Notes under the pieces: generated by a model
The model's database searches: none
Told to the model about the DNA's origin: nothing
What the model saw: only the letters and a program-made list of their open reading frames with translations
Source of the DNA: an uncultured virus (IMG/VR IMGVR_UViG_3300048883_000321)
Taxonomy: Duplodnaviria > Heunggongvirae > Uroviricota > Caudoviricetes
DNA length: 20,000 nucleotides
IMG/VR virus record: IMGVR_UViG_3300048883_000321
Strand: one strand, 5' to 3'
Shown here: positions 2,333 through 19,393 of the stretch, one piece after another
How positions within the stretch are numbered: position 1 is the stretch's first letter
Layout of the letters: every line of letters begins with the position of its first letter
Position numbers and translations under genes: made by a program

Positions 2333-2590
2333 CTAGTCCGTTAAGACCATAACTTGAAGGCCGACCGAGCCGGAGAACTCGCCGGTTGTCCGGGTGGAGT
2401 CAGACCAGAAGTGAACGTCAACGTCGTCGCCGACCAAATCGGTGGTCAAGACCATGACGAACTCGCCGCCTCGGAAGCGTACTTGGGTGTCACCTAAGAA
2501 GAAGCGGTTGCCTCCGGGGCCCATTGGCCACTCGTTGAGAACCCTGTCGGTTGCTACCAAGTCTGCGAGTTTTTTGAGTGTTACTTTCAT
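2333..2590 (-). CDS. Hypothetical protein (85 aa)
   Basis: AAAGGAG RBS and a full cassette promoter upstream. Confidence 0.85.
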   Translation of the reverse strand: MKVTLKKLADLVATDRVLNEWPMGPGGNRFFLGDTQVRFRGGEFVMVLTTDLVGDDVDVHFWSDSTRTTGEFSGSVGLQVMVLTD

Positions 2591-2624
2591 GTTTGCTCCT
2601 TTGTTGTTGTTTGCTTATAGGTTT

Positions 2625-2689
2625 AGTATACACTAGGGAACCCCCATGCGCAACCTTTCGGTAAAGATTTCTTTGTGACTTTTGTCACA
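2625..2689 (-). promoter_or_regulatory. Cassette promoter: TGTGA-N6-TCACA box (2674-2689), TTGCGC-17-TATACT
   Basis: -35 at 2648-2653, -10 at 2625-2630. The same layout recurs throughout the window. Confidence 0.85.
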
Positions 2690-2760
2690 GCCGGGGCCGA
2701 CTCGAGCCCCCCGGGGCCGACGACAAAAAAAGACGGGAGCCGAAGCCCCCGCCTTGGATT

Positions 2761-2871
2761 TTATTTTGTGGCCTTTGGCTTACCGCCTCGGCGATTGAAG
2801 TTGCCTGCGCCTCCGACGAACTTGGTCGGTGGGCGTTTGTGGGAGCGAGCCCGTCCTTGATATGCTTTCAT
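2761..2871 (-). CDS. Small basic peptide (36 aa, MKAYQGRARSHKRPPTKFVGGAGNFNRRGGKPKATK)
   Basis: Not in the ORF track. AAGGAGG RBS, cassette-type GGTTGC promoter upstream, hairpin downstream. Confidence 0.7.
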   Translation of the reverse strand: MKAYQGRARSHKRPPTKFVGGAGNFNRRGGKPKATK

Positions 2872-2991
2872 TGTGCCTCCTTGGCGTAGTTGCTTACAAA
2901 GTAAGTGTATCAAAGGGAACAACCAGAAGCAACCTCAACCGGAAACTTTCTTAGATTTCTTTTAAGTTCCCAGCCGGGGCCGAAATCCGTA

Positions 2992-3056
2992 TGTGACACA
3001 TGTCACAAAGAAATCTTTGCTTTGGGGTTGCGCATGATGGTTATCTCTGCTATACT
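2992..3056 (+). promoter_or_regulatory. Cassette promoter (+): TGTGACACATGTCACA, TTGCGC-17-TATACT with TG extension
   Basis: Box 2992-3007, -35 3028-3033, -10 3051-3056. Confidence 0.85.
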
Positions 3057-3093
3057 TACACTTGTAAGCAACCAACGGCAAAGGAGCCAAATC

Positions 3094-3192
3094 ATGGAAT
3101 GCGAAGACTGCGAAGAATACGAAGAAGATTGTACCTGCGGAGACCGACCCGCCCCATGGGACACCCGAGGCGAAGCCAACGGAGACCGATAG
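3094..3192 (+). CDS. Small acidic Cys-rich peptide (32 aa, MECEDCEEYEEDCTCGDRPAPWDTRGEANGDR)
   Basis: AAAGGAG RBS, own promoter and terminator. Start reassigned from the 2905 ORF. Confidence 0.75.
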   Translation: MECEDCEEYEEDCTCGDRPAPWDTRGEANGDR

Positions 3193-3201
3193 CCACCAGC
3201 G

Positions 3202-3225
3202 AGCCTGCCCCGAAAGGGGCGGGCT
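3202..3225 (+). terminator. Hairpin with GAAA tetraloop
   Basis: AGCCTGCCCC-GAAA-GGGGCGGGCT just after the stop. Confidence 0.65.
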
Positions 3226-3475
3226 TCAGGCCCCGGTAGTACCTCCGGGGCACAAACGCGTGTGAATCCCATCGTGTGAAAACAAGCCAGCGATGCGGCA
3301 GCGACGAAAAGGTCGGGCGTGAATATACCCGGTAGTACTCCGGGGCGGTGGCGTGTGGTTTCGTCGATGAAGCCATTGTAGCGTGGCCTACCCTGAAACC
3401 CAACCTTACCCGAATCTTTTCTTTTTCGCCTGCTAGGTTAAAGAACGGTTCTATTAAGGTTATATTACGGTTCAT

Positions 3476-3562
3476 GGTTCAAAGCCTGAACCTGCTGCCG
3501 GTTCAAAGCCTGAACCTGCTGCCGTGTCAGAGCCTGAACCTGCTGCCGGTTCACAGTGAACC
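3476..3562 (+). repeat. 24-bp tandem repeat GGTTCAAAGCCTGAACCTGCTGCC x3 plus a partial copy
   Basis: Units at 3476, 3500, 3524 (degenerate) and 3548 (partial). Internal dyad GGTTCA-N5-TGAACC. Confidence 0.85.
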
Positions 3563-3708
3563 TAAACACCAGTTGACCTTATCCGCTATCTCCGGGGCTT
3601 CGTAGGGTCAGAGTGAACCTACAAGGGCTCCGGTAATACTCCGGGGCCTTTGTGCGTAAATCGGTTGGGCCGGGCCGAGGGCCGAAGCCCCCAGCCTCTA
3701 GCCGTTGG

Positions 3709-3867
3709 TTAGCGGACTGCTTTTTTGAGTGCGTCCTTTTGGGCATCCGTCCAAACGTTGCCGTCAAGGTCGGTGAGGGTCCACCGGTCGTTATGAACGT
3801 CGGCCCTAGCCAACTGGTACGCAACTCCCGCTGCCCATGGGTCTAGGTTTATAAGTAGGTCGTTCAT
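3709..3867 (-). CDS. Hypothetical protein (52 aa, MNDLLINLDPWAAGVAYQLARADVHNDRWTLTDLDGNVWTDAQKDALKKAVR)
   Basis: Not in the ORF track. AAAGGAG RBS and cassette promoter (TTGCTT-17-TATACT, box 3949-3964). Confidence 0.8.
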   Translation of the reverse strand: MNDLLINLDPWAAGVAYQLARADVHNDRWTLTDLDGNVWTDAQKDALKKAVR

Positions 3868-4032
3868 GTTTGCTCCTTTGTTGTTTGTTTGATAAGGTTA
3901 GTATAGCACAGGTAACCACCAGAAGCAACCCCGAAACAAAGATTTCTTTGTGACTTTTGTCACACCACAAGCGGCACCCCCCGGGGCTTGACAGGTGAAA
4001 CGGCCACCAGCCCGTTTAAGGACTGGTGGCCG

Positions 4033-4070
4033 GAGCCGGGGGAGGGAAAGGAGGTAACCTCTCCCGCCTC
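4033..4070 (-). ncRNA. 3'-UTR hairpin with anti-SD loop (ACCUCCUUU)
   Basis: Minus strand GGGAGAGG-TTACCTCCTTTC-CCTCCC, followed by a second hairpin at 4001-4032. Confidence 0.5.
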
Positions 4071-4079
4071 TATTTTGGT

Positions 4080-4226
4080 CTAGCGGATTGGCGAGAAGTT
4101 TAGTTCCTCGATTATTCCGACGAGTTCTTCTTGTTTGGTGACCATTTCTTCGCTTGCTTCGGCGAGGGCTCGGTTGGTTGCCATCATTTTACGGAAGGCG
4201 ATTTCGGTTGGGTGGTCCGGGTTCAT
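4080..4226 (-). CDS. Hypothetical protein (48 aa, MNPDHPTEIAFRKMMATNRALAEASEEMVTKQEELVGIIEELNFSPIR)
   Basis: Not in the ORF track. AGGAG RBS and promoter TTGCTT-17-TATACT with box at 4314-4329. Confidence 0.8.
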   Translation of the reverse strand: MNPDHPTEIAFRKMMATNRALAEASEEMVTKQEELVGIIEELNFSPIR

Positions 4227-4368
4227 GTCTTGCTCCTGTTCGTGTGTTGTTTGCTTATAGGTTTAGTATACACCAAGGGATGCCCGAAAGCAACCCCTAG
4301 AGGAAGATTTCTTTGTGACACCTGTCACAGCACCTCGGGCCGGGGCCGAAGCCCCAACCCGCTGACCG

Positions 4369-4596
4369 CTAGAGCAAGCCCAACTCACGGCAGACAACGA
4401 AGCGCCCATCGGCCATGCGCCGACTTGACCAGCAAGCCACGCCGTCGCCCTCCACATGAGCCCATGTGGCATTTATGGCGTTTTGAGAAGTACGCTCTAC
4501 CTTAAAAAGTTCGGTTCGCATGAGTAGTGCGAGGGTAGCGTTATGACGGATAGCGTCAAGGATTTCGATTTTCATGTTTGGCTTTTCGTTGTTCAT
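4369..4596 (-). CDS. Hypothetical protein (75 aa)
   Basis: AAAGGAG RBS and promoter TTGGTT-17-TATAAT with box at 4678-4693. Confidence 0.8.
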   Translation of the reverse strand: MNNEKPNMKIEILDAIRHNATLALLMRTELFKVERTSQNAINATWAHVEGDGVACWSSRRMADGRFVVCRELGLL

Positions 4597-4751
4597 TTTT
4601 GCTCCTTTGTAGTTTGCTTGATAGTTGTATTATAGTGGGACTAAAGCCCATAACCAACCTCTAACTTAAAGTTTCTTTGTGACATCTGGCACAGGGGCCG
4701 GGGCCGCGGTTCGGCTGGCCGACTCGGTTAGGAGCCGACCAGCCGAGGGGT

Positions 4752-4886
4752 TTAGCCCGCCAGCAATACTATGCCGACGAAAAACGAGCAGTTAACTAGG
4801 ACGTAAAGCCCAACGATAACCCTTGCTTTAGGGTAACCCTGTTGGAACTGTTCGGCTAGGTTTTCTAGTGCCGTTGATAGGTTCAT
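4752..4886 (-). CDS. Small membrane protein (44 aa, C-terminal hydrophobic helix)
   Basis: Start reassigned to MNLST after the AAAGGAG RBS. Promoter TTGCTT-17-TATACT with box at 4969-4984. Confidence 0.75.
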   Translation of the reverse strand: MNLSTALENLAEQFQQGYPKARVIVGLYVLVNCSFFVGIVLLAG

Positions 4887-5102
4887 GTTTTCTCCTTTCC
4901 TCCTTGTTGGTATACCTTTAGTATACACCATAAGGTAGGCAAAAGCAACCCCTAGAGGAAGATTTCTTTGTGACATTTGTCACAGGGGCCGGGCCGCGTC
5001 AACCCTCAACCTCTACTAGAGGGTTAGGGTTCCGCCCCAACCCAATCCGGCCGCGTGTGACATAAGTCACATGTGACACATGACCACCAACCCGGCCGAG
5101 GG

Positions 5103-5297
5103 TTACATCACGACCTTTAAGATTTGGACTGGCACGTGACGGAAAATGGTAGGGTTGATGCTGCCGGTGGGTGCTGCCGTGGTGATTACCTTGCCGTTGA
5201 TTTCTACGATTTCAAGCAGTTCAAAACCGGTGGGTACGGTGATGGCTACAACGTCCCCGATTACTAGGTGCTTGGTGTAGGTGTTGGTTAGTTTCAT
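5103..5297 (-). CDS. Hypothetical protein (64 aa, small beta-rich)
   Basis: AAAGGAG RBS and TTGCGG-18-TAGTAT promoter. Confidence 0.8.
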   Translation of the reverse strand: MKLTNTYTKHLVIGDVVAITVPTGFELLEIVEINGKVITTAAPTGSINPTIFRHVPVQILKVVM

Positions 5298-5396
5298 TTT
5301 GGCTCCTTTGCCGTTGCTTCGTTAACCCCATACTATCGTTGTTTTACCCAATACCGCAACCTCAAACTAAAACTTTTCTAGATTTCTTTTCGGGGG

Positions 5397-5410
5397 CGAA
5401 CGTGTGTTCT
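5397..5410. promoter_or_regulatory. LexA-type box CGAAC-GTGT-GTTCT
   Basis: One mismatch to CGAAC-N4-GTTCG. Confidence 0.45.
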
Positions 5411-5502
5411 GTCGCGCTCCCGGCATTACCTCCGGGCCTTTTCTCGGGGGGATTCGGTGGGCTGGTTTGGCGGTAGCCCATTGACTACCGCCACCCTGCC
5501 CG

Positions 5503-5760
5503 CTATGGGGTCTCAACGGCAAACAGCACGTATGTGTGCCCTTGGCCGTCCCCTATGTACTTAAAGCCGTCAAGGTCGGCGTGGTCGTAGCGTACGACCT
5601 GTACGCCCTTGTAACGGTCTAAGCGTCCGCCATAGGTAAAGTGGTCGCACATGTTGCCGACCCGTGTACCGGTGACCGGATGGTGGTCAACAAAAATGTC
5701 GTATTCAATGTTTTCACCTCCGTTGATAAAGGTGTGGTGAATCATGGCTAGGTCTTTCAT
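5503..5760 (-). CDS. Hypothetical protein (85 aa)
   Basis: AAGGAGG RBS and downstream hairpin at ~5469-5493. Confidence 0.8.
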   Translation of the reverse strand: MKDLAMIHHTFINGGENIEYDIFVDHHPVTGTRVGNMCDHFTYGGRLDRYKGVQVVRYDHADLDGFKYIGDGQGHTYVLFAVETP

Positions 5761-5922
5761 GGTGCCTCCTTAAGGCTTGGGCTACTTGCCCTCCCCCATA
5801 ACGATACAGGGTAAACCAACGATTGACGAGGCTAGACAACCATTCATTTTGGTCATAAGTCACACGGCCAGCGGAGAGTGGTCAATCGGTCACAAATAGC
5901 GGTCAAAAAGTGCTTTATTTTC

Positions 5923-6024
5923 GAAGCCACCATTTGCCCTCTAAGACGTTTTCAGCCGATTTATGGGTGGTAGTCCCATAACGACCTTTAACCGCATACG
6001 CGGGCTATACGTGGCTCTGAGGGG
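5923..6024 (+). repeat. ~90-100-bp periodic element, copy C
   Basis: Begins GAAGCCACCATTTGC and ends CTATACGTGGCTCTGAGGGG. Confidence 0.75.
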
Positions 6025-6146
6025 ATTCGCCTTTTATCACTCTTTGTGACCAAACGACCACTCTGAGTGAAGCCGGGGGCGCGCTGAAAATGCCACAGAG
6101 AGCGGTGGAGCGACCACAAATAGTGACGGGAAAACCGCTTGTTTTC

Positions 6147-6248
6147 GAAGCCACCATTTGCTCCCTACGGCGTTTCTAGGGCGCGCGTGGGGGGTTGTGT
6201 CGTATTCGGCCTAAACCGCTTAGGTGGCCTATACGGGGCTCTGAGGGG
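6147..6248 (+). repeat. ~90-100-bp periodic element, copy D
   Basis: Begins GAAGCCACCATTTGC and ends CTATACGGGGCTCTGAGGGG. Confidence 0.75.
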
Positions 6249-6446
6249 AAACCCAAAAAAAGCGGCCTCCGGTTCTTATCCCCCGGGGCTCATGTGTAAA
6301 TCTCACTCTGCGTGGCGGGTTGACCACTTTCCGCAGGCGAATGGTCAGGCGTCACATTTATGATAAATCTTGATTTTGGGGGTGCGAAGGTTGTTATTTT
6401 TGATAGACTCACTCTTGTAAGCAACTATCACCAAGGAGGTGAAAAA

Positions 6447-6827
6447 ATGATAACCATTCAACACAACACGAATCGGAAAAGTGACGGTAAGCCTCTCCAA
6501 GCAATGGGGATGCGCGCTAGTTTTCTCAAGTACTTGGAGGACGCGGTGAAAGCCGTAGCCACCGAGGGACTGAGCCCACTAGCGGCACTCCGTCCACTTG
6601 GCACGATTTACGCTTGGGCTGGGGCGAAAGTCACCATCCACGTGGCACGGGTTCATGGAGATGTCTACCGCATCTCTTGGAGCCGTCCAGCGGGGCGTGG
6701 AGGCATCGCCACCGGCACCAAGACCGTGGAGCGGGTAGCCACCATACGGTGCGCCACCAACCCTTTGGAGTTCCTCACGAACATCGTGGAGCATCCCGAG
6801 GGCTTGGACATTGAGCCCGTCGGTTAA
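6447..6827 (+). CDS. Hypothetical protein (126 aa), paralogue of 8697-9083
   Basis: AAGGAGGT RBS. Shares HNxxRKSDGKP..A.G.RAS and Y.(I/V)SW.RPAGR with 8697-9083. GAAA hairpin downstream. Confidence 0.85.
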   Translation: MITIQHNTNRKSDGKPLQAMGMRASFLKYLEDAVKAVATEGLSPLAALRPLGTIYAWAGAKVTIHVARVHGDVYRISWSRPAGRGGIATGTKTVERVATIRCATNPLEFLTNIVEHPEGLDIEPVG

Positions 6828-7061
6828 TCGGCAGGGGGTCGGCCCGAAAGGGTCGGCTCCCACCGGGCCCCCGGCAGTACCTCCGGGTTGCGTTCGTGTG
6901 AATCTGTGGGCGTGTGAATCCCGTATGCTCCCGGTTCTGCCCTAGACTGTATACGTGTGAATTTGGCCTCCGGTTACCCCGGGGTGCATAGGGGCGTGTG
7001 AATGGGCGTGTGAATCCTTACGCGACAGTTCCGCCCGGCTGGGGGGCAGGGCGGAACTGGA

Positions 7062-7098
7062 GCAGGCAGAGGCGAAAGGAGGGAAAGCCCCCGCCCGC
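7062..7098 (-). ncRNA. 3'-UTR hairpin with anti-SD loop (UUUCCCUCCUUUC)
   Basis: Minus strand GCGGGCGGGGGC-TTTCCCTCCTTTC-GCCTCTGCCTGC, followed by a hairpin at 7026-7059 with a C-rich loop. Confidence 0.55.
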
Positions 7099-7289
7099 TA
7101 TGGCTTAGTATACAGGGTGCCGTCGCTCATCCTGAGGAGGATGGGCTGGCCATCTTCGCTGAAAATGATTTCCTCGGTGGTTGGTGCCCCGGGGTCGTTC
7201 ATCCATGTGATGGCTTCTAGGGCTAGTGCGAAAGTGATAACCCCGGCGATGATGACGGCCGCGGCCATGACCCGGTCGCCCGCCCCCAT
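7098..7289 (-). CDS. Small membrane protein (63 aa)
   Basis: TAATG overlap with the upstream stop. Hydrophobic N-terminal helix. Confidence 0.7.
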   Translation of the reverse strand: MGAGDRVMAAAVIIAGVITFALALEAITWMNDPGAPTTEEIIFSEDGQPILLRMSDGTLYTKP

Positions 7290-7573
7290 TACAGTGCCCC
7301 GCATTCACGGAGTGCTGACAGGTCAACGCTTTTCCATTCGGATGGGCGGGTGCCGTTCATGAGTGGGTGGACTTTGGTTGCGGTTTTCATGGAGGCATTG
7401 ACGACGATGCCGGAGTGGCCGTTGGTGGTGGGCCAGATGTAGCAGATGTCGCCACCGTTGTAGGTGAATGCCTTCATGTCTTTGTGGGTGTTAAGCCATT
7501 GGCGGGCATCGTCTAGACTGCCGAATGAGTACCGTGGCCGATTGTAGGCTAGGTCGTGGGTTATTGTTTTCAT
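7289..7573 (-). CDS. Hypothetical protein (94 aa)
   Basis: AAGGAG RBS, TATAAT at 7603-7608, box at 7642-7657. Confidence 0.8.
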   Translation of the reverse strand: MKTITHDLAYNRPRYSFGSLDDARQWLNTHKDMKAFTYNGGDICYIWPTTNGHSGIVVNASMKTATKVHPLMNGTRPSEWKSVDLSALRECGAL

Positions 7574-7777
7574 GTTTGCTCCTTGTAGTTGGTTATAGAG
7601 TCATTATACATGGTGGAGGGTGGGCTTGCTACCCTATTTGGTGTGGCATCCGTCACATCTCCCCCGGGGCTCCGTGTGTGTGACGAATGTCACAGAGAAA
7701 CTTTGGGTCAGAGGTTGCGTTATGGTGGTTACCTCCGCTATACTGGGGTTATGACAAGGAGGGAGGAGGTGAAAAAA

Positions 7778-7990
7778 ATGATAATCAAAAAAGACTACAT
7801 CATACTTTGGGAAACCTCAGAGGGCGAACTTGCTGCCGAAGAGGCACCAAACGCCACCGTAAGCGAGTTGGAGTTCCTCATAGAACACCCGCTAGTTACC
7901 GGCGACCGCATCAAAGAGGACACCGTGAAGGTGTTTGAACTGGGCGAACAGGTCTGGTACGGCACCGGCGCACCGCCAGTGCGCATTTAG
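7778..7990 (+). CDS. Hypothetical acidic protein (70 aa)
   Basis: GGAGGT RBS, box 7679-7694, TTGCGT-18-TATACT, downstream hairpin at ~7997-8025. Confidence 0.8.
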   Translation: MIIKKDYIILWETSEGELAAEEAPNATVSELEFLIEHPLVTGDRIKEDTVKVFELGEQVWYGTGAPPVRI

Positions 7991-8144
7991 GCCACAGGGT
8001 CGGCTCCCTCACCGGGAGTCGGCCCACCGGGCCTCCGGTTACCCCGGTTGCGAGCAGGTGTGGAAAGCCGCGTGTGAATCTGGGCTCCCGGGCCTGAATA
8101 GACTGAATACGTGTGAATTTGGGCTCCCGGGCGGGTAGCCAAGA

Positions 8145-8175
8145 GCCCCACCCCCAAGGAGGGGAGGGGTGGGGC
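8145..8175 (-). ncRNA. 3'-UTR hairpin with anti-SD-like loop (UCCCCUCCUUG)
   Basis: Minus strand GCCCCACCCC-TCCCCTCCTTG-GGGGTGGGGC just after the stop at 8184. Confidence 0.5.
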
Positions 8176-8183
8176 GAGGTTGG

Positions 8184-8333
8184 CTATCGGGTGATGCCGA
8201 AGGCGATGTCCATTATGGCTGCCAGTTCGGGGAGAGGGTTCCCGGCCTTGGCGTACCGTTCGGCAGCGTCTTGGATGGCAGCATCTTCTTTCTCTGCCTT
8301 GACGTAGTCCGATGGGTCTGGTTCGTAGGTCAT
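8184..8333 (-). CDS. Hypothetical protein (49 aa)
   Basis: Start reassigned to MTYEP after GAAAGGA. TTGGTA-16-TATAAT, box at 8416-8431. Confidence 0.75.
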   Translation of the reverse strand: MTYEPDPSDYVKAEKEDAAIQDAAERYAKAGNPLPELAAIMDIAFGITR

Positions 8334-8521
8334 GTGTTTTCCTTTCGTGTAGTTGGTGTTACCTTTATTATACAGGCTGGGAACCCAATACCAACCCCGA
8401 AACAAAGATTTCTTTTGTGCCATGCGTCACACGACACCCCCGGGCCAGCGCAACCCTCAACCTCTACTTTAGGGTTAGGGTTCACGGCGGGCAGAACTCC
8501 CGGCCGGGGCGCGGAGCAAAA

Positions 8522-8601
8522 TGTGACGGATGTCACATGTGACAAATGACCGCTGTGACACATGACCGGTGTGACAAATGACCGCTGTGACGTATGGCAC
8601 A
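8522..8601 (+). repeat. Five tandem 16-bp units each starting TGTGAC
   Basis: TGTGACGGATGTCACA TGTGACAAATGACCGC TGTGACACATGACCGG TGTGACAAATGACCGC TGTGACGTATGGCACA. Confidence 0.9.
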
Positions 8602-8696
8602 TGGATTCGCCCGGCCACCTCCGGCTATCTCCGGCGGGAATCTCGCGGGTGGTTTGGTGGGGGAGGGTGACCGCTCACGGCCACCCTCCCGAACTG

Positions 8697-9083
8697 CTAG
8701 ATAACCTCGATTTCTATCGCGGTTGGTTGGTTTTCAATGTCGGCGAAGTAGCCGATAAGGTCGGTAGCGGTGTTGACCGTGACCGAGCGGACGATTTCCG
8801 CTTTGCCCATAGCGTCGCTGTAGGTGTTCTTGCGACCTGCGGGGCGTATCCATGACACGCTGTACCGGTCGGCACCTATGCGGGTGATGGATGCGAAGCA
8901 GACAGCGCCTGCGAAGAAAGAGAACCACGAACCTTGACGGTTATGGTTGACGGGGCGAACTACTTTCTCGCCGAGCCCTTTAGACAGTTGGTCAAGACTC
9001 GCTATTAGCGAAGCACGTTGACCGGCTGCTTTCATGGGCTTGCCGTCGCTCTTCCTTTCTTTGTTGTGGGTGAGTGTTGCCAT
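8697..9083 (-). CDS. Hypothetical protein (128 aa), paralogue of 6447-6827
   Basis: AGGAGG RBS before MATLT. Collinear similarity to 6447-6827. Confidence 0.85.
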   Translation of the reverse strand: MATLTHNKERKSDGKPMKAAGQRASLIASLDQLSKGLGEKVVRPVNHNRQGSWFSFFAGAVCFASITRIGADRYSVSWIRPAGRKNTYSDAMGKAEIVRSVTVNTATDLIGYFADIENQPTAIEIEVI

Positions 9084-9238
9084 GGGTGAACCTCCTAGGT
9101 TCGGGTTCAAGGTGTTTCCTTGATAAATACCATGCTAGAGGTTGCGTACCCAAAAATGACAGATTGTGACGGATGCCACACAACAATCTTAGAGTGGTCA
9201 AGCCACCACTTAGAGCGCACAAAAAAACGCTCATTTCT

Positions 9239-9341
9239 GAAGCCACCATTTGCCCCATGTGGCGTTTCTAGGTCACCGGTGGGGGATAGGGTCATTATAG
9301 GGGTCAAAGCCCACAGCGGGCTTGTGTGTGGCTGTGAGGGG
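9239..9341 (+). repeat. ~90-100-bp periodic element, copy E
   Basis: GAAGCCACCATTTGC...GGCGTTTCTAGG...GGCTGTGAGGGGAAA. Confidence 0.7.
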
Positions 9342-9379
9342 AAACGCTGGGAGTGGTTAGAAGAACGCTCTAAGCGAAG

Positions 9380-9408
9380 CGAACAGGTGTTCGCCGAACG
9401 TGTGTTCG
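9380..9408. promoter_or_regulatory. Two adjacent LexA-type boxes
   Basis: CGAACAGGTGTTCG-C-CGAACGTGTGTTCG, both perfect CGAAC-N4-GTTCG. Confidence 0.65.
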
Positions 9409-9649
9409 AGCCCAAAAAACGCCTCCGGTACTCCCGGTTGCATTGGCGGGGGGATTCTGGCGTGTGAATCCTCCGGTGGCCCCTCCGGTGGCCCTCCCGG
9501 TTTATGTTACGACTTTACACGTGTGAATCTGCCCCCGGGTGTGGTGTGTCAGATGTCACAAAGAAAACTTTGGGGGAGGTTGGTTCTTGGGAGTTTGGGG
9601 TGTATGCTTACGGCTGTAAGGCAAGTCAACCAACTACGAAAGAGAAAAC

Positions 9650-10076: not shown

Positions 10077-10114
10077 TCCCGGAGGGCGAAGGAGGTTCAA
10101 AAAACCCTCCGGGA
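10077..10114 (-). ncRNA. 3'-UTR hairpin with anti-SD loop (ACCUCCUUC)
   Basis: Minus strand TCCCGGAGGG-TTTTTTGAACCTCCTTCG-CCCTCCGGGA, followed by a hairpin at ~10041-10076 with a C-rich loop. Confidence 0.55.
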
Positions 10115-11998: not shown

Positions 11999-12257
11999 GT
12001 TTTTTTCTTTCTTGTAGTTGGGTGTGCCCTCATACTACAGCGTCAACTACCGATTTACTCACTTTTTGGTGTGGCATGTGTCACACCGCCCCCGGTACAG
12101 AAAAACCAGACCCACACGCCCCGGTCGAGCCCCCAACTACAAGGGCTCCCGGTTGCATCCCTTAGATGCGTTTTGCGTGTGAATCTGGCGTGTAAATACG
12201 GGCGTGTGAATCTCAGCCCGTGTAAATCTGTACCCGGTCGCCCAAAACCATTTCTGC

Positions 12258-12452
12258 TTATTTCCAAGGATTGACGATTGTTACCTCTGGACGCGCTTCC
12301 CATACGTCACCCTCTAACAGCACTTCGCGCTCCCGGTCATCGGTTTGACCCCACATTTCTTCGGCGATAGAGCGGGCTTCATCTTCTGACCCGGCTTCAA
12401 TCTCTACACATAGGGAGTAGGTGTCCACGATTTCTACATAGTATTCTGGCAT
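12258..12452 (-). CDS. Small protein with YxV...(I/V)EAxSEDEA motif (DpnD/PcfM-like), 64 aa
   Basis: Start at MPEYY, directly after the upstream stop. Motif shared with 13878-14057 and 18751-18924. Confidence 0.75.
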   Translation of the reverse strand: MPEYYVEIVDTYSLCVEIEAGSEDEARSIAEEMWGQTDDREREVLLEGDVWEARPEVTIVNPWK

Positions 12453-12454
12453 GA

Positions 12455-12859
12455 CTACGCCCTCTCGGCTTCGTACATGTTTTCGCAGACCACGCAAATG
12501 TTCCCGGCGTACTCTACATGGTCAATGCCACGGTCGAAAATGTCTAGGTCGCCGTTAGGGTCGTCCTTGATTCCGCAATGGTCACAATGAACGGTTACAG
12601 GCCACCCGGTATCGGAGTACATCATTTGGTCGTACATGGTGTCGAACTCAACGAAGAGGTCGAGGTAGGTGACTTCGCCTACGCCCGGTCGGATGTCGGT
12701 GTCGTTGTATCGGCTTGAGTTGCCGAAATCTTTAACCCATCCTTCTATGGATTGTTCTAAACCGTCAATGAGGTAGAAGCCTCCGGTTGGGGCACGGTGT
12801 AGGTCGCCCCGGTTGACGCATAGTCGGGCTTCGCTTCCTGCTCGGGATACTGGTTTCAT
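12455..12859 (-). CDS. Hypothetical protein with C-terminal CxxC...CxxC (134 aa)
   Basis: AGAAAG RBS, TTGGTT-17-TAGAGT promoter, CDHC/CVVC. Confidence 0.8.
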   Translation of the reverse strand: MKPVSRAGSEARLCVNRGDLHRAPTGGFYLIDGLEQSIEGWVKDFGNSSRYNDTDIRPGVGEVTYLDLFVEFDTMYDQMMYSDTGWPVTVHCDHCGIKDDPNGDLDIFDRGIDHVEYAGNICVVCENMYEAERA

Positions 12860-12953
12860 GGTAGTTGTCTTTCTGGTAGTTGGTTGGTTACAAGTACTAC
12901 TCTAGGGGTAAGGATAGCCAAAACCAACCTCACCCCTAAAGTTTCTCAAATAG

Positions 12954-13271
12954 TTATGCGTTCACGACCCGGTACATAGCCCGCCCATCATTAGCCCGCC
13001 ACCCGGTCGGCAACGACTCCACACGCACAACCTCAGCCCCCGGCATGTATTTACACCGGAAAGTTTCAGCCGTTTTACGGTAACGCCACACAGACGCCGT
13101 GTGAATGTCAGGTGTGAAATAGTGGCGACCAAGCGAACGGTAATACGAACCCCGGTGGGTAGCCAAATCCGACTCCCGAAGAGCCCAAACCTCAAACGCC
13201 CTGCCCACTCTGCCGCGGGGGTCAATCCGACGACGCTCATGAACCACCCATCCGGTGGCAAACTGGCTCAT
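12954..13271 (-). CDS. Hypothetical basic protein (105 aa)
   Basis: ATGA overlap with the stop of 13268-13876. Confidence 0.7.
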   Translation of the reverse strand: MSQFATGWVVHERRRIDPRGRVGRAFEVWALRESDLATHRGSYYRSLGRHYFTPDIHTASVWRYRKTAETFRCKYMPGAEVVRVESLPTGWRANDGRAMYRVVNA

Positions 13272-13876
13272 ACCTTGACCTCGTTAATGGCGCACGATAA
13301 CGCTCCCTCCGGCGACAACTCCCATTCAGGGTATTTGTCAGCAGGGTAGATTATGCTAGTAAACCCGCGGTCAAACTCTACCTGCCATTCGTCGTACCCA
13401 GATTCGTACATTGCCATTGGAGCGTCCGGTGTGTAATCGGTTTGGAGAGCCCGTACCGCACCATTAACAAAAACCGTCCGGTGACGCCACGCTGGTTGCT
13501 CTTCAATGCTTAACGTAACGAATACGGCTTCGGGGAACATTTTGGAAATCGTTTTAATGGCGATGTCCGGTGTGTCCCAAGGGGTAGTAAATGTGAATGT
13601 GTTTGGATGGTCATGCGGGTAGGCGTGATTGTCCGGCCATTTGGTGCCCCAGTTTTTGAGAGCCCAGCCGTAACCGTCAATGGTGCCCGGTTGGCCGCCG
13701 TCGTTGAAAACAGTGAACCCGCCCTCAACTTGACGCTGCCCGGCTTCGGGGAATGGGATGAACTTGTCAATGAACGAACCGCCATCGGCGATGTGTTCGT
13801 CTATCTGTTTAGTGGCAGCAGCGACATCTTCGTCACGCCCGGTGATGTGTAGTGTGTTGTAAACGTAGTTCGGCAT
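13268..13876 (-). CDS. DUF1281/YubB ferredoxin-like family protein
   Basis: MPNxxxNxLxIxG start, WxxxNWGTKW and FxTPWxxP motifs. Confidence 0.8.
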   Translation of the reverse strand: MPNYVYNTLHITGRDEDVAAATKQIDEHIADGGSFIDKFIPFPEAGQRQVEGGFTVFNDGGQPGTIDGYGWALKNWGTKWPDNHAYPHDHPNTFTFTTPWDTPDIAIKTISKMFPEAVFVTLSIEEQPAWRHRTVFVNGAVRALQTDYTPDAPMAMYESGYDEWQVEFDRGFTSIIYPADKYPEWELSPEGALSCAINEVKV

Positions 13877-13877
13877 T

Positions 13878-14057
13878 CTAAACCTCCGTGGTTTCGGTTA
13901 CTTCAGGTTCAATGATTTCTAGCAGTGTTGCGCCATCCCAGTTGATGTCCGGTGAGAACCCTTCAACGAGGTCTCCAGCGGTTTCGGCATCCGGTGCCTC
14001 TACTCGAATCCAATAGTTTGATGTTGCTGTGAATGAAACTTCATAAGTGTTTGTCAT
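13878..14057 (-). CDS. Small YxV...VEAxDAExA motif protein (59 aa)
   Basis: AGAAAG RBS before MTNTY. Confidence 0.75.
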   Translation of the reverse strand: MTNTYEVSFTATSNYWIRVEAPDAETAGDLVEGFSPDINWDGATLLEIIEPEVTETTEV

Positions 14058-14120
14058 GTTGGTCTTTCTGGTTGGTGGGGGCATCGCCTGCGTTGGACGA
14101 TGCCCCCGGTTGGTGGTTGG

Positions 14121-14438
14121 TTAAACGCTGGTGATTCTAAGGTTTTCGACTGCCTCTTGGATTCCCCGGCGTACATCGTCGGCGACTGCTTCGGCAACAA
14201 CGTCGCCGACTTTTTCGTCAATAGCGTCGCTAAGCATGTCAGAGGTGACTAGGTCGTAGTCGTAGTCCCAAGAAATGTTGTCTAGTTGGGTGCTGACCCG
14301 GCCCTCTAGTTCGGAGTCAAGGTGGTCATTGACAAGGGTAGATACGACCTCGGTGACGCTTTCAAGCGGGTCCGGTTGTGGTAGGTAGGGGGCGATGGCT
14401 TCAGCCAAAGCCTTGAGTAGTGGGGTTAATGTGTCCAT
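14121..14438 (-). CDS. Hypothetical acidic helical protein (105 aa)
   Basis: AGAAAG RBS, TAGTAT at 14489-14494, box at 14537-14552, 5'-UTR hairpin at 14461-14483. Confidence 0.8.
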   Translation of the reverse strand: MDTLTPLLKALAEAIAPYLPQPDPLESVTEVVSTLVNDHLDSELEGRVSTQLDNISWDYDYDLVTSDMLSDAIDEKVGDVVAEAVADDVRRGIQEAVENLRITSV

Positions 14439-14564
14439 AGTTGGTTTTCTTTCTGTTAAGTAGTGGGGGAGGTTCCCCCACTAAAATCATACTATCGTGA
14501 GAATCAGGGAACCGAAACGTCTAGTTGACTTTATTATGTGTCATCCGTCACACGCCGCCCCCGG

Positions 14565-15362
14565 TTAGAACTTCTTGACAAACTCGGCCATCCCGACCGG
14601 CAGGTGCCGTGCCCGGCCCTTCGCATACAACGCCACGATGGAACCAAACGGGTCGTCGTAACGAAAATCCGTCCGGTCGCCGTTAATAACTGGCATCCCA
14701 TACCAAGTGTCGGCATACCCGGTCTCTTTATGTTCTTTAGGGAATACAACAGCGACGCTGCCCCCGGCCCGCACCTTGGCGCGGATGTCGTCTATTCCGT
14801 GGCGTTCGGTCGCCGAGAAAGTTAAACGGTATCGGCGTTGAGGGTCCCGGTCGCGGTCCCAGTTTTTGGTGTAATCGTAGGTGCGGACGTTCTCCGGTGC
14901 CTCGTAAAATAGCCACGGTGCTACATCCTCCCACGCAATGTCTGACACGATGTTAAGCCTCCGGCCGAGGATTTCGGTTTTCTTGGATGCTTTGACGGTC
15001 TCCCAATGAATCAACGACACCGCGGCGTCGGGGTCAGAGTAGAGGAAACGTGTCCGGTCTATCCCTAGTTGTTGGGCGTAGGGCATGTCTAGGCGACCGG
15101 TGTGGCGTATACAGACTGCCCGGCATTGTGGCGTGGATTGTGGGCATACGTTGTGGCCGGATAGGCGGTGAGGGCTCCCGGTGAACGAAACGGTGTGGTG
15201 TTCGTTTTTGCGTAGTTTAGCATTTGGTTCGGATAGGTATGGGGCTTTAATGGTCCGGTATCCGTTTTGTTCTCGGAATGCGTACCACGCTGCCCGGCTG
15301 TCTAGTTCTGGGACTAGGTCGGCGTGTAGTTTGGTGGGTCGGGTTATCTGTAGGTTGGTCAT
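14565..15362 (-). CDS. Phage Gp88-family protein (Cys triad, radical-SAM-like), apparently leaderless
   Basis: SGxNVCPxSTxxCxxxC, RLNxxSDIxWE, YDYTK, YxLTFS, VINGDxTDxRxxDP and IVxLxAKG motifs. TAGCAT -10 ends 6 nt before the ATG. Confidence 0.8.
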   Translation of the reverse strand: MTNLQITRPTKLHADLVPELDSRAAWYAFREQNGYRTIKAPYLSEPNAKLRKNEHHTVSFTGSPHRLSGHNVCPQSTPQCRAVCIRHTGRLDMPYAQQLGIDRTRFLYSDPDAAVSLIHWETVKASKKTEILGRRLNIVSDIAWEDVAPWLFYEAPENVRTYDYTKNWDRDRDPQRRYRLTFSATERHGIDDIRAKVRAGGSVAVVFPKEHKETGYADTWYGMPVINGDRTDFRYDDPFGSIVALYAKGRARHLPVGMAEFVKKF

Positions 15363-15575
15363 ACCTAGATGCTATCGGGTAAACCACCGGTTTACTCTAT
15401 GACATGTGTCACACCATCCCCGGTACCCCAAAACCCGCTCCGGTCCGAGGGGAGCGGCCCGGGAGCAAGGATGACCAACAAACCTGCCCCCGGACAAATC
15501 AGGGAATACAATGCCACCCAACAAGGGGCGTGTGAATCTGGGAATACAGCGGCCGGCGACTAGGCTCGTGTGAAT

Positions 15576-15896
15576 TTACGCTCGGGCGTTTTCCCACGCC
15601 ATATCCGCAAGCAACTCTGAGTAAAGCCGCGACCACGAACGTTCTACCTTGGGAAGCGTGGCTCTGTCTCGTTTCATCCCAATCCACCAGAGAACCTCCG
15701 ACCCATAGATATGAGGGATGCTTAGTGTTGAGGCCCCGGCGTTAACAGTCACCGATATTCCCCACCATTTTGGTGCGTCCCCGCAGGTTCGGCCAAACTC
15801 CCGGCCGTTAGTTAAGGGAGGTTCGTTGAAGTTAAGGTTATGTATAATCATGTCGGCGGTCATGTCGGTTATTGTTATAACGATTGGGTCGCTCAT
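15576..15896 (-). CDS. Hypothetical protein (106 aa)
   Basis: ATGA coupling and AAGGA RBS. Confidence 0.75.
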   Translation of the reverse strand: MSDPIVITITDMTADMIIHNLNFNEPPLTNGREFGRTCGDAPKWWGISVTVNAGASTLSIPHIYGSEVLWWIGMKRDRATLPKVERSWSRLYSELLADMAWENARA

Positions 15897-16887: not shown

Positions 16888-16941
16888 GTTGGTCTTTCTG
16901 TTTGTTGGTTTGTGTTAAGTACTACTATACAGGGTTGAAGG

Positions 16942-17421
16942 CTAAGAACCAACCTCCGAGGTAGATTTTATTAGTTCTAGGTCGGTTATGTAAAAAGACA
17001 AAGTCCCATCCTCGCCCTCCTCCATCCAATCCGCCCGGTCATCATCCAACACAACAACACGGTTAATGTCATCCATGCGAACAACAAGCCCAGTAATGTC
17101 CTGCTCCCGATGAGCCACCCGGTTCCCAACCCAAATAGCGGTATTCCGTTTCAGCCAAGTCATAACCTCCAAACCGGAGTCACTAGCCACCCGGTCAACA
17201 TCTTGTGCGGAAAACACAAACAGCAAATCCTCAGGGTGATGCTCAGGGTGCTTAAAGAAATGGTCAGGGTGGCACGGGATGTCCAAACCCAGAATCTCAT
17301 CCATTGTCCAGTCGTCGCGAATCAACCCGGCGACCTCTTCTTGCTGAGAGCCCTCTAAGAACGTTGGCCGTCTATCCGGCCCGTAAGGGCGTATTGTGTT
17401 AACTGGCTTGCGGGTTCTCAT
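16942..17421 (-). CDS. Hypothetical protein (159 aa)
   Basis: Start MRTRK by ATGA coupling to 17418-17510. Confidence 0.75.
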   Translation of the reverse strand: MRTRKPVNTIRPYGPDRRPTFLEGSQQEEVAGLIRDDWTMDEILGLDIPCHPDHFFKHPEHHPEDLLFVFSAQDVDRVASDSGLEVMTWLKRNTAIWVGNRVAHREQDITGLVVRMDDINRVVVLDDDRADWMEEGEDGTLSFYITDLELIKSTSEVGS

Positions 17422-17510
17422 GCTGCCACCCCGCCTAGTAGCCATGCGAGCAGGACTAGACCGGTGACGATTAAGGCCACATTGACCCGGCGGTAATCGG
17501 TGGGAGTCAT
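17418..17510 (-). CDS. Small membrane peptide (30 aa, MTPTDYRRVNVALIVTGLVLLAWLLGGVAA)
   Basis: Not in the ORF track. ATGA overlaps at both ends and a single hydrophobic helix. Confidence 0.7.
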   Translation of the reverse strand: MTPTDYRRVNVALIVTGLVLLAWLLGGVAA

Positions 17511-17842
17511 GCTGCCACCCGGCCGTCCATCTCGGCTTCAATAGCGTCAACGAGGTTAGCGAAGTTGTGTTCGTTCAGGAAAATGGAGACATCGCCGATG
17601 TTTAGGACTACATACGGGTCTGACCCGTCTACCTGCCCGGCGGTGACTAATGTTCCTTGGGATGCGCGTGGGGTGTGGATGGTGACTCGGTTAAAGTCAT
17701 GGCCTTCACCCACCCGGCGGAACTCAACAACCTCAACCGATAGGCGGTCTTCGGATTGGTCGTACTCCGAAACCCATCTGGCTGAGGTGGCGATGGCGGT
17801 TCCGCAATCGTTTTCTTCGTGGTCAAATACTACGTTTTTCAT
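17507..17842 (-). CDS. Hypothetical protein (111 aa)
   Basis: AGAAAG RBS, TTGGTA-16-TAGAAT, box at 17934-17949. Confidence 0.8.
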   Translation of the reverse strand: MKNVVFDHEENDCGTAIATSARWVSEYDQSEDRLSVEVVEFRRVGEGHDFNRVTIHTPRASQGTLVTAGQVDGSDPYVVLNIGDVSIFLNEHNFANLVDAIEAEMDGRVAA

Positions 17843-18071
17843 GGTTGGTCTTTCTGTTAGTTGGTTATGTGTTCCCCCCCATTCTAGGCCGTAGAAGTGC
17901 GATACCAACCCCAAAACCCGGATTTCTCAGAAATGTGACAGGAGTCACACCAACCCCCCGGCAGTAACCCCGGCCCCAAAGTGACAAACGTCACACCCCG
18001 AAAAGCCCCCGGTGTATCAGGGAATGCAACGATCAGGGAATACAGGCGTGTGAATCTAGCAGCGTGTGAAT

Positions 18072-18443
18072 CTACACCAACGCCAACGACTCGCTACACA
18101 AATCGCAAGTGTAACCCCACAAAGAATCCTCAGAAAGACGGTACTTGTCGTCGAAATCAGGATGCTCTATCTCATCAAGGTCGCCGCCCACAGGTTCCCC
18201 GGGATTAAGCCGCAACCGGCGACCGACCTGCGGTTGCGCCTGCTCGTTAATGCATTGCCCGCAAATATCGAACTGGGTAGGTGCCGGGTTGAGGCCATCA
18301 GCGTTCGTGGCTTCTTGCCAAGCATCAACATCATCCCCGGCGTTTTCGTATCGCCCGTGTTCCCATGGTTTCTTATTCGTTCTTTCTCTTTGCAGGTTTG
18401 CGTCCCAAGCCTTGAAGAACTCTTTACCTATGTTCGTTGTCAT
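18072..18443 (-). CDS. Hypothetical protein with CxxC...CxxC (123 aa)
   Basis: AAGGAG RBS, ATGA coupling, CGQC/CDLC. Confidence 0.75.
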   Translation of the reverse strand: MTTNIGKEFFKAWDANLQRERTNKKPWEHGRYENAGDDVDAWQEATNADGLNPAPTQFDICGQCINEQAQPQVGRRLRLNPGEPVGGDLDEIEHPDFDDKYRLSEDSLWGYTCDLCSESLALV

Positions 18444-18754
18444 TTCTTCTCCTTCGTCGAACTCCATTGTTGAAGTGACCACTGCGTTGTTGAACCGACC
18501 GCAGCGTTGATGAGTGTGTTGAGTGCGTCGCATAGTTGCGCTTCTCGCATCATAACTGACCATTCGTCGGCAGGTATCCCATTCTCGCACCACCCGCACA
18601 TCAGGTCGGCTCCGCTGGGATGCCCGGTGTAGGTGCCGTGTTCGCAATGGAACTCTCGTCGGTCGTCGTGGCTGTCAACTACCGGCCACGCTGCTTTCAT
18701 TACTCGGCTCGCTTCGGTAGCGGCCTTCATCAGGTCGTGTGAGTTTTTATTCAT
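18440..18754 (-). CDS. Hypothetical protein with CEHG...CGWC motif (104 aa)
   Basis: ATGA coupling and a putative Zn-binding CxH...CxxC. Confidence 0.75.
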   Translation of the reverse strand: MNKNSHDLMKAATEASRVMKAAWPVVDSHDDRREFHCEHGTYTGHPSGADLMCGWCENGIPADEWSVMMREAQLCDALNTLINAAVGSTTQWSLQQWSSTKEKK

Positions 18755-18924
18755 GATTGTTCATCCTCTAGCCGCGCCCAGCCGAAGCGGTCAACGACTC
18801 TGCCGTTGGCTTCGTCCCATTCAAATAACGCTAGTTCTACGGCTTCTTTTTCCGAGTCCGCGCTAACTGTGTGGGCGCCGCCGATGCTGACGGTGATTTC
18901 AACTGTGTAGTTCTTTTTACTCAT
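18751..18924 (-). CDS. Small YxV...VSADSEKEA motif protein (57 aa)
   Basis: AAAGGA RBS before MSKKN. Confidence 0.75.
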   Translation of the reverse strand: MSKKNYTVEITVSIGGAHTVSADSEKEAVELALFEWDEANGRVVDRFGWARLEDEQS

Positions 18925-18947
18925 GTTCTGATCCTTTGGTTGTTGGT

Positions 18948-19205
18948 TTATTGTTCGTGAACAGGGCAAGTATCGCCCTGATGGTTGTTGGGGTCGTCAG
19001 ACGTACGGAACATCCGGCAGTCGCCGATGAGACGGCTGGCGAAGTGCAATGCTTCTTCAACGGTGAGGACGGCCTCAAATGAATCTGATTGGAGGTTGGT
19101 TTCGCCGACCCGTAATGTGATGGCGATGCCCTCTCCCTCGTACCGTTCACTCCGTGCTGAGTTGAAGGGGTTTAGTTCTCCCTCTTTGTAGTATTGTCTT
19201 TTCAT
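18948..19205 (-). CDS. Hypothetical protein (85 aa, ends GDTCPVHE)
   Basis: AGAAAG RBS, TTGGCA-16-TATAAT, box at 19297-19312. Confidence 0.8.
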   Translation of the reverse strand: MKRQYYKEGELNPFNSARSERYEGEGIAITLRVGETNLQSDSFEAVLTVEEALHFASRLIGDCRMFRTSDDPNNHQGDTCPVHEQ

Positions 19206-19393
19206 GGTTGGTCTTTCTGTTAGTTGGTTTGGTTACTCTGTCCCCCCATTATAGGCCGCGAACATCCAATGCCAACACCAAAAACAAGATTTATCATGTG
19301 ACATCAGACACACCGGGCCCGGTCCACCCCCCGGTTAATCACCCCCGGTCCACCCCCCGGTCAATCAGGGAATACAGGGGAGGCCCCCCGGTG

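Follow-up and report, generated by a model that had tools for sequence, protein, structure and literature searches.

Repeated promoter modules and whole-cassette turnover in an accessory island of an uncultured phage family

A 20,000-nucleotide (nt) stretch of the uncultured virus IMGVR_UViG_3300048883_000321 (Caudoviricetes), in the following called the window, contains at 2333-19312 an island of small genes in which versions of one upstream module recur, and this raises the question of what the module does, and whether it has taken part in assembling the island. The modules are genuine and occur only in the island, relatives with almost the same sequence differ by entire cassettes, and the crossovers that could be mapped lie within 7-28-nt segments common to the cassettes. 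We consider it probable that the island consists of self-sufficient expression cassettes that are turned over by short-homology recombination between dispersed module copies.

Gene calling gave 42 genes in the window (GC ~54%), 38 on the minus strand and four on the plus strand (3094-3192, 6447-6827, 7778-7990 and 9650-9856). In its full form, a cassette is composed of a GC tract, a 16-bp CRP-type palindrome, an A-rich box, a -35-like GGTTGS element, a TAnnnT -10 box, a CA-rich leader with a Shine-Dalgarno sequence (SD), a small open reading frame (ORF) and a GC-rich hairpin. That the upstream part is a repeated module was the central claim of an earlier annotation of this DNA (the original prediction), and the counts bear it out. 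The palindrome, TGTGAC-N4-GTCACA, is found at 21 sites when up to two mismatches are allowed, against 0.88 expected, and none of 200 shuffles reaches 21; written as TGTGA-N6-TCACA, it has nine exact sites in the window, and 20 with at most one mismatch. The core AAGAAAYYTT-N8-GGTTGS (up to three mismatches) has 19 sites against 0.93 expected, and the CCGGGGCC tract 11 against 2.0. Also in the whole records of relatives, all palindromes are confined to the island (11 of 11 in G001, 4 of 4 in G004).

Promoters of the GGTTGS/TAnnnT kind, defined as TTGSnn, 16-18 nt and TAnnnT read on the gene strand, precede 18 genes (g3-g10, g12, g15, g16, g18, g19, g20, g24, g34, g37 and g41), with the -10 box 29-42 nt from the ATG and a CA-rich leader with SD. 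The predicted -35/-10 spacing of 16 or 18 agrees with the 16-18 nt obtained if the -35 hexamer is read as TTGSnn, but not with the 18-20 nt between the end of GGTTGS and the -10 box. A scan for a simple sigma-70 consensus gave no excess (11 sites, 10.5 in shuffles), because the -35 part is here GGTTGS and not the scanned consensus, and this result has no bearing on function. Six further promoters (g14, g17, g21, g22, g28 and g29) have the palindrome and lack the GGTTGS box. With one ORF-less copy of the core (3423-3375), the census total is 25 promoters for 39 island genes; the picture of individually promoted genes fits the single-gene cassettes that prevail at 2.3-11 kb, but not the operons of 2-5 genes that prevail at 12-19 kb. 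In g21 and in g29, which encodes a GP88-family protein, the transcript is predicted to be leaderless, with the -10 box 7 nt and 6 nt, respectively, before the ATG (-10 regions 11033-11045 and 15363-15374). The GP88 arrangement is kept in L027, L030 and L032, which belong to a set of IMG/VR loci (L027-L032) retrieved with aligned GP88 homologs (GP88 identity 54-65%).

Hairpins of -20 kcal/mol or lower follow 15 of the 27 operon ends and one of 60 random coding windows, as anticipated for cassette ends. This threshold was used because -15 kcal/mol separates operon ends from coding controls poorly (18/27 against 18/60), and a U-tail is present on one hairpin only. In the g19, g20 and g24 promoters, a stem-loop is located between -35 and -10. 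All four plus-strand cassettes carry their own module and hairpin, as had been described. The promoters and cassettes are listed below, where d is the distance in nt from the palindrome centre to the start of the -10 box.

2333-19312, 35 genes on the minus and 4 on the plus strand: the hyperplastic island, 39 genes in ~25 transcription units
2591-2689, minus: full g3 module, with palindrome (2674-2689), AAGAAATCTT, GGTTGC, -10 box TATACT (2625-2630), CA-rich leader and SD; d=51
2872-2963, minus: g4 module, with no palindrome of its own, divergent from the g5 module
2992-3093, plus: full g5 module of an inverted cassette, gene 3094-3192, hairpin ~3195-3232
3375-3423, minus: orphan promoter core with no ORF behind it, core match 3400-3423
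3649-3993, minus: complete g6 cassette, with hairpin, gene 3709-3867, module and palindrome (3949-3964), flanked by direct copies of CCGGGGC
4227-4329, minus: full g7 module; d=51
4349-4711, minus: g8 cassette, gene 4369-4596, module 4597-4693, GGCCGGGGCC tract 4696-4705
4752-4984, minus: g9 cassette with full module, palindrome 4969-4984
5298-5393, minus: g10 module, with double A-rich box and no palindrome
6352-6850, plus: inverted g12 cassette with degenerate module, gene 6447-6827, hairpin
7574-7777, minus/plus: divergent promoter pair g14/g15; g14 palindrome 7642-7657, d=41; g15 palindrome 7679-7694, d=52, gene 7778-7990
8334-8431, minus: full g16 module; d=51
8522-8601: operator-like tandem array (family D18) of five 16-nt units, TGTGAC-N4-G.C.C., head-to-tail; a two-unit copy lies at 5056-5085
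9084-9180, minus: palindrome-type promoter of g17, -10 box uncertain
9545-9890, plus: inverted g18 cassette, module 9545-9649, gene 9650-9856, hairpin
10438-10521, minus: g19 module, with stem-loop between -35 and -10
10803-10884, minus: g20 module, with stem-loop between -35 and -10
11033-11083, minus: palindrome promoter of g21, leaderless; d=30
11099-12085, minus: ArdC-like gene and palindrome promoter, palindrome 12070-12085; d=40 by hand count
12258-12947, minus: operon g24-g23, module 12860-12947
14439-14552, minus: palindrome promoter of operon g28-g25; d=50 by hand count
14565-15413, minus: GP88 gene and leaderless palindrome promoter, palindrome 15398-15413; d=31, geometry kept in L027, L030 and L032
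16888-16972, minus: module of operon g34-g30
17843-17995, minus: module of operon g37-g35, with two palindromes (17934-17949 and 17980-17995); d=55, out of phase
19206-19312, minus: module of operon g41-g38; d=51

The operator-like arrays at 8522-8601 and 5056-5085 are both placed between a terminator hairpin and the next module.

The position of the palindrome suggests a function in transcription. It occurs in 11 of the GGTTGS promoters, in ten of them 50-52 nt from the -10 box and in g37 at 55. When TAnnnT starts downstream of palindrome centres are collected from the window, L027, L029, L030 and L032, the distances form peaks at 30-31 (14), 40-41 (7), 50-52 (15) and 60-62 (4), and 36 of the 59 matches have d mod 10 equal to 0 or 1, against ~12 expected; paralogous copies are included in these counts, but the four distinct distance classes nonetheless share one phase. 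For the leaderless GP88 promoter, d is 30-31 in four lineages. Because the palindrome is located 30, 40, 50 or 60 bp from the -10 box, it would be expected to bind a dimeric regulator in contact with RNA polymerase on a single face of the helix.

Evidence for turnover comes from three short metagenome contigs (L004, L008 and L010), found by a metagenome scan with the module pattern, which match the window at 88-95% identity and one another, where they overlap, at 99.8-100%. The g6 cassette (3649-3993) is absent from all three, g8 is absent from L010 and L004, and g9 is present in L010 and absent from L004. L008 has an extra basic ORF of 43 amino acids (aa) between two module copies, upstream of g3, and L004 an extra Cys/Asp-rich ORF of 47 aa between two copies of the g10-type promoter. 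The cassette content of L004 and L010 differs although their flanks are 99.8% identical. All five cassette indels relative to these contigs (in 1640-6870) have copies of one shared sequence at both boundaries, and according to three-way alignment the recombinant modules are clean chimeras of two parental copies. Such alignments place the g6 crossover in CCGGGGC, a direct repeat of 7 nt, and that of g8 in the GGCCCCGGCC tract. The crossover of the extra L008 cassette is in the palindrome/A-rich box of the g3 module, where ~28 nt are shared, and that of the extra L004 cassette in a 23-nt identical segment covering ribosome-binding site (RBS) and ATG. Orthologous cassettes in the close relatives keep the same neighbours.

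Parts of the stretch were also found in 24 public runs of 16 studies, labelled hydrothermal-vent, marine, seawater or freshwater metagenome, or simply metagenome, and contigs (Logan) of four of the runs were aligned to the window. Run X11, from a marine sample, contains a relative at 90-97% identity with seven skip joints whose shorter side is at least 28 letters. Two of these take out exactly one cassette each at the module: 3640>3981 removes g6, with 7 letters that fit either side, and 4303>4668 removes g8, with the junction inside the A-rich box. At 10829>11077, g21 is removed and the g20 leader joined to the g21 palindrome. The others are 12242>12459, which removes g23 exactly, 15588>15906 (g30 removed), 16165>16686 (g32 and g33 removed), and 18778>19011. 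X11 also has a loose end at 9648, where the g18 leader is continued, beginning with the start codon, by a different ORF, which amounts to one cassette replacement. Two joints that go back by 36 and 47 nt reflect a changed number of units in tandem motif arrays, and joint 8568>8522 in run X10 is a copy-number variant of the operator-like array 8522-8601. Three X11 joints with sides of 25-26 letters (2181>5098, 2693>8490 and 2938>5297) were set aside as repeat-induced. The original prediction had named relatives with fixed cargo, or breakpoints unrelated to the module, as grounds for giving it up; in L004, L008, L010 and X11 cargo content does vary, with breakpoints in or beside the module.

In the mechanism that we favour, recombination between dispersed module copies would add, delete or replace cassettes, and inverted copies would flip them. 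A host or phage annealing recombinase could carry out the exchange, and each product would retain a working promoter and terminator, as has been proposed for the promoter-early stem-loops (PeSLs) of T4-type phages. The modules would be read by a host polymerase of sigma-70 type, and therefore probably early.

Several observations weigh against this mechanism. Intergenic junctions are partly expected in any case, with in-gene breakpoints purged by selection, and promoter activity, binding and starts of the modules are predictions from sequence. At two junctions the shared homology is only 7-10 nt, i.e., microhomology. The orientation of g5 and g12 is unchanged in the close relatives (g5 in L008 and L010), which consist of three short contigs and one run and possibly represent one population. 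Contigs of the four runs have neither a strand-change joint nor a circle-type joint, with the limit that contigs drop rare forms. Among the promoters, g37 (d=55) is out of phase and g17 is unclear. Finally, four of the seven X11 indels (g23, g30, g32+g33 and 18778>19011) are within operons and have module-free junctions, and plasticity therefore does not require modules.

The latter indels are accommodated if the modules are conserved promoters and operators of one regulon, and if turnover is ordinary phage mosaicism, driven by illegitimate recombination and selection, in which the modules are not causal. These are events at gene boundaries, some with 12-37 replaced letters, and furthermore, the whole region downstream of the holin gene differs among family relatives, including L028 and L031 with one palindrome. 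What makes this alternative doubtful, although it survives better than the others, is the left half of the island, where the shared-sequence copies on both sides of all five indels, the clean parental chimeras, and the different cassettes of L004 and L010 between near-identical flanks all point to the modules themselves.

The original prediction had compared the island to an integron array. A site-specific recombinase encoded outside the window could act on the palindrome or the CCGGGGCC tract to insert, excise and invert cassettes, and the precise 7-nt direct repeat around g6, the g8 junction in GGCCCCGGCC, the palindrome near most left-half boundaries, and the four inverted cassettes are compatible with this, as are the four central palindrome letters, which differ among the g3 module of the window and both parental copies. 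The resemblance to integrons is that small, mostly unknown and individually mobile cassettes are lined up one after another, with boundary sequences that recur. However, none of the 42 window ORFs (in agreement with the prediction on this point) and none of 24 ORFs of relatives contains an integrase, recombinase or invertase domain, the former including no intI, and the cassettes bring promoters of their own (25 for 39 genes). The four crossovers are distributed over three kinds of short sequence, including the palindrome/A-rich box and the RBS-ATG stretch, and the phased distance of the boundary palindrome to the -10 box is that of a transcription-factor site rather than a recombination site. 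No attC-like site turned up in the window, where no attC model was run and an Rfam scan gave a single sub-threshold small RNA match. An integron-like mechanism is therefore very improbable, and the analogy was abandoned. An assembly artefact, i.e., a metagenomic chimera formed by collapsing or joining at repeated modules, is more improbable still: ~100-nt repeats at 60-80% identity can mislead assemblers, and Logan contigs of several runs break near modules, but contigs of run X4, a sample not flagged as source, match 5272-11409 (6138 nt) and 2493-4017 with 0 differences and 11382-14479 with 0-1, which supports the assembly with all four inverted cassettes included, and both the number of runs and studies and the constant neighbours of orthologous cassettes speak for a genuine sequence.

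Among known systems, the island most resembles the PeSL regulatory cassettes of T4-type phages, and not the integron. PeSLs are described as repeated units of ~100 nt with sigma-70-like -35 and -10 boxes, an A/T-rich upstream part and a stem-loop, which is sometimes located between -35 and -10; they accumulate in hyperplastic regions, where they precede ORFans, and mark the boundaries of indels that distinguish close relatives. Homologous exchange between units is the mechanism proposed for them, and excised mini-circles are a further feature (PMC2839356, PMC4122927). Four of six features that define PeSLs are also found in the island. These are the repeated sigma-70-like promoter with an A/T-rich element (19 core matches, 25 promoters), the stem-loop joined to the promoter (the operon-end hairpins, and g19, g20 and g24), the hyperplastic location (35 of 39 genes with no Pfam family, 30 of 39 with no homolog in family relatives, and island-confined palindromes), and element-bounded indels with chimeric elements (five of five in 1640-6870; in X11 two of seven at the module and four of seven module-free). 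The T4-type myovirus context is different, since the relatives' records are of 13-64 kb with estimated completeness of 17-83%, and their terminase is nearest those of psiM100/psiM2 and Gordonia phages. For the mini-circles, no circle-type joint was found in the contigs, a source in which rare forms are dropped. Further differences from PeSLs are the 16-bp CRP-type palindrome at phased distances, the use of GC tracts and the RBS-ATG stretch as additional crossover points, the four inverted cassettes, and a second, polar 9-mer described below. New in the island are a phased, island-specific CRP-type operator, several mapped crossover handles, family-level evidence for flipping, and the polar 9-mer. 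If the comparison with PeSLs is correct, shuffling of promoter cassettes, known until now from T4-type phages, would also take place in a phage family that is unrelated to these and much smaller. The crossover points are mapped at nucleotide resolution, and suggest that an operator, a GC tract and a ribosome-binding stretch can all serve as handles.

Two other systems have partial similarities. The host-takeover module of phage SPO1, situated in the terminal redundancy, has about two dozen small genes, expressed early from many short operons with strong promoters of their own; the island is likewise a small-gene cluster in many short operons, each with a promoter, but shares no sequences with it. 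In Cluster K mycobacteriophages, start-associated sequences (SAS/ESAS) are conserved at the translation start of many non-structural genes throughout the cluster, half of them with an upstream inverted repeat (PMC3203893). As in the island, start regions are conserved, but the SAS are start-associated 13-mers and not whole promoters, and the parts of that report consulted do not describe cassette indels at SAS.

Which protein would bind the palindrome? The consensus of the island palindrome is that of CRP, TGTGA-N6-TCACA (PMC5758884). CRP class I and II promoters share with the island promoters the 16-bp consensus, an A-rich segment that separates the site from -35, and site positions that differ by one turn of the helix. 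In the island, the centres are ~1-2 bp further upstream than the E. coli positions, and a class at roughly -52.5 exists. A host activator of CRP/FNR type and a phage-encoded regulator appear about equally probable. In five partial phage records, no helix-turn-helix (HTH) domain of the CRP family (HTH_Crp_2) scored above cut-off, and weak HTH_Crp_2 matches proved to come from an HTH_36 replication initiator and were rejected as a phage CRP. The window, L027, L030 and L032 all carry the palindrome, and in L028, which like L031 has only one, it belongs to a single promoter with d=50 and TTGACT/TAGAAT boxes. Two freshwater contigs (L002 and L003, GC 46%) have no protein homology to the window and contain tandem 86-nt units of palindrome, AAGAAACTTT, TTGACT, 17 nt and TAGAAT, with d=51 by hand count. 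These units form a promoter array with no ORF between them (L003 660-1110, L002 1400-2000). A phasing histogram of L002/L003 was uninterpretable, the AT-rich units each holding several TAnnnT. If a regulator does act at the phased, island-specific operator of the window, this operator provides a testable link from host physiology to the expression of an accessory island whose genes include an ArdC-type anti-restriction one.

The second repeated element, the 9-mer GTGTGAATC, is polar. With at most one mismatch it has 39 sites against 4.4 expected, 38 of them on the plus strand, and all 22 exact copies are intergenic and on the plus strand. The clusters sit after minus-strand operon ends and after the holin gene, and keep their strand even beside inverted cassettes:

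1963-2124, plus: left cluster of GTGTGAATC type, ten 9-mers with a 13-14 nt period
19396-19590, plus: right GTGTGAATC cluster, seven copies between the holin gene and the first island promoter
3260, 6896-7016, 8072-8119, 9462-9529, 9952, 12177-12228, 15530-15576 and 18048-18072: smaller GTGTGAATC clusters

The 9-mer is kept in relatives, always opposite the gene strand (strand counts 20/0, 0/10, 0/10 and 0/2), and 37 of 40 copies in three records are inside the island. It may be a polar insulator, a stoperator-like site, or a set of iterons. The stoperators of Cluster A mycobacteriophages are reported to be asymmetric, present in more than 20 copies in short intergenic spaces, and of one orientation relative to transcription (PMC9283540). 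Asymmetry, copy number, intergenic location and polarity are shared by GTGTGAATC. Unlike stoperators, which are spread over the genome and bound by the immunity repressor, GTGTGAATC is confined to the island, forms tandem clusters at operon ends, and keeps its strand next to inverted cassettes. GGTTGC, which occurs 20 nt upstream in 5-6 window copies, was considered as a fixed partner of the 9-mer and dropped, its orientation not being kept in L028. An HTH_36/O-like replication initiator, conserved in the phage family, is encoded outside the island (L049 829-1713, minus; L050 1375-2139, plus), and is a candidate binder of the iteron-like cluster 1963-2124.

A more ambitious scheme can be drawn up from these elements, in which the accessory or anti-defence island would have a regulatory code peculiar to this family of marine phages. 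A host CRP/FNR-type regulator at phased sites (~-42, -52, -62 and -72) on ~20 promoters would tie island expression to the metabolic state of the host, the GATTCACAC clusters (gene strand) would act as protein-dependent insulators at operon ends, and the same pieces would double as recombination handles for plug-and-play, invertible cassettes. Since the unrelated freshwater lineage L002/L003 combines this operator and the A-rich box with the 51-bp spacing, the regulator would be one that is widespread among hosts. In this complete form, we consider the scheme unlikely.

Turnover over longer distances is seen in the family relatives. Upstream of the holin gene, the family loci are collinear (terminase, 2OG-Fe(II) oxygenases, methyltransferase and lysin), and the holin is kept in L027, L028 and L030-L032, and according to tblastn also in L029. 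Downstream of it, a holin-GP88-ArdC backbone is kept and most cargo differs; nine of the 39 island genes (g12, g17, g22, g25, g26, g28, g29, g33 and g35) have homologs in five distinct family relatives. Over these distances, genes acquire other neighbours and promoters of another type, and are turned around. The g12 ortholog runs in the direction of the GP88 gene in L027, and is inverted in the window and L028/L031. Both place and strand of the DUF3846 gene (F16) vary among relatives, the families F15 and F17 and the g33 homolog switch sides of the GP88 gene, F2 also changes position or strand, and one gene family is seen behind different promoter and leader types. The predicted variation in order and orientation is thus observed for some genes, and among the more distant relatives. 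The island as a whole is likely to be the hyperplastic accessory part of the genome in a family of uncultured marine or vent phages.

Searches beyond the family gave little. Near-identity search of the window among 50,697 phage records found no match, a distant search with one module returned chance-level matches only, and a search with the L003 array returned none. In viral contigs, the strict module pattern had 0 matches and a broader pattern two single, unrelated ones, and GP88 and ArdC as single queries found no relatives there. A scan of genome contigs produced 12 single matches in unrelated bacteria and archaea and no arrays, which were taken as chance or ordinary sites. Loci retrieved with g26 were discarded (29% identity only, without the motifs), and a protein atlas query with g12 gave no usable match. 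A tRNA scan of the window found none.

As for the cargo, the prediction of mostly unknown proteins holds, given the 35 island genes with no Pfam family. In seven of eight small ORFs common to the window and the close relatives, the ratio of nonsynonymous to synonymous substitutions (dN/dS) is 0.07-0.24, and they are therefore real genes. The recognisable genes, and the holin gene next to the island, are as follows:

11099-11998, minus: ArdC-like gene (g22), Pfam ArdcN 3e-22 and MPTase-PolyVal 1.7e-35, phrog_7245
12258-12452, minus: g23, DpnD/PcfM-like, above the Pfam cut-off
13268-13876, minus: DUF1281_C candidate, below the Pfam cut-off (20.6 against 22.8 bits)
14565-15362, minus: GP88-family gene (g29), Pfam GP88 4.3e-25
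19703-19912, minus: holin, last conserved gene before the island, phrog_443 3.1e-8

Of the cargo named in the original prediction, ArdC and GP88 are above the Pfam cut-off, but DUF1281 is not. Early timing and an enrichment for anti-defence functions may be inferred from the sigma-70-type promoters and the ArdC, DpnD/PcfM and DUF3846 cargo. The cassettes can be regarded as compact natural expression units for ~30 unknown small proteins, and make a defined list for screens for host-modulating or counter-defence activity. Tiny Cys/Asp/Glu-rich ORFs with a CEDCE-type motif recur as separate cassettes (window 3094-3192, 32 aa; reverse complement of L004, 961-1104, 47 aa), and so do tiny Lys/Arg-rich ORFs (g4, 36 aa; the extra ORF of L008, 43 aa).

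Within the window, g12 and g17 are paralogs in inverted orientation (34% identity, E 1e-22), and a non-coding repeat of ~220 nt (families D7/D19, core GAAGCCACCATTTGCC) is positioned upstream of both, at 5855-6095, 6079-6320 and 9171-9420, with a weaker copy at 290-560; it could be a small RNA or a binding region. The gene-free segment 3240-3650 contains, besides the orphan promoter core, three tandem 24-nt repeats (3476-3550) and recurring CCGG-TAnTAC-CCGG hairpins, and contigs of run X8 have loose ends within the 24-nt repeat. Hairpins of family D16 (AACCCTCAACCTCTAC..GAGGGTTAGGGTT) are found at several cassette boundaries (1884-1915, 2158-2187, 5001-5032 and 8452-8483), and adjoin the operator-like arrays in two cases. 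On the plus strand, long A/C-rich tracts with CCCCAAAAACA-type repeats (family D1) enclose the island together with its flanks, at 1-130, 1560-1740 and 19600-19900.

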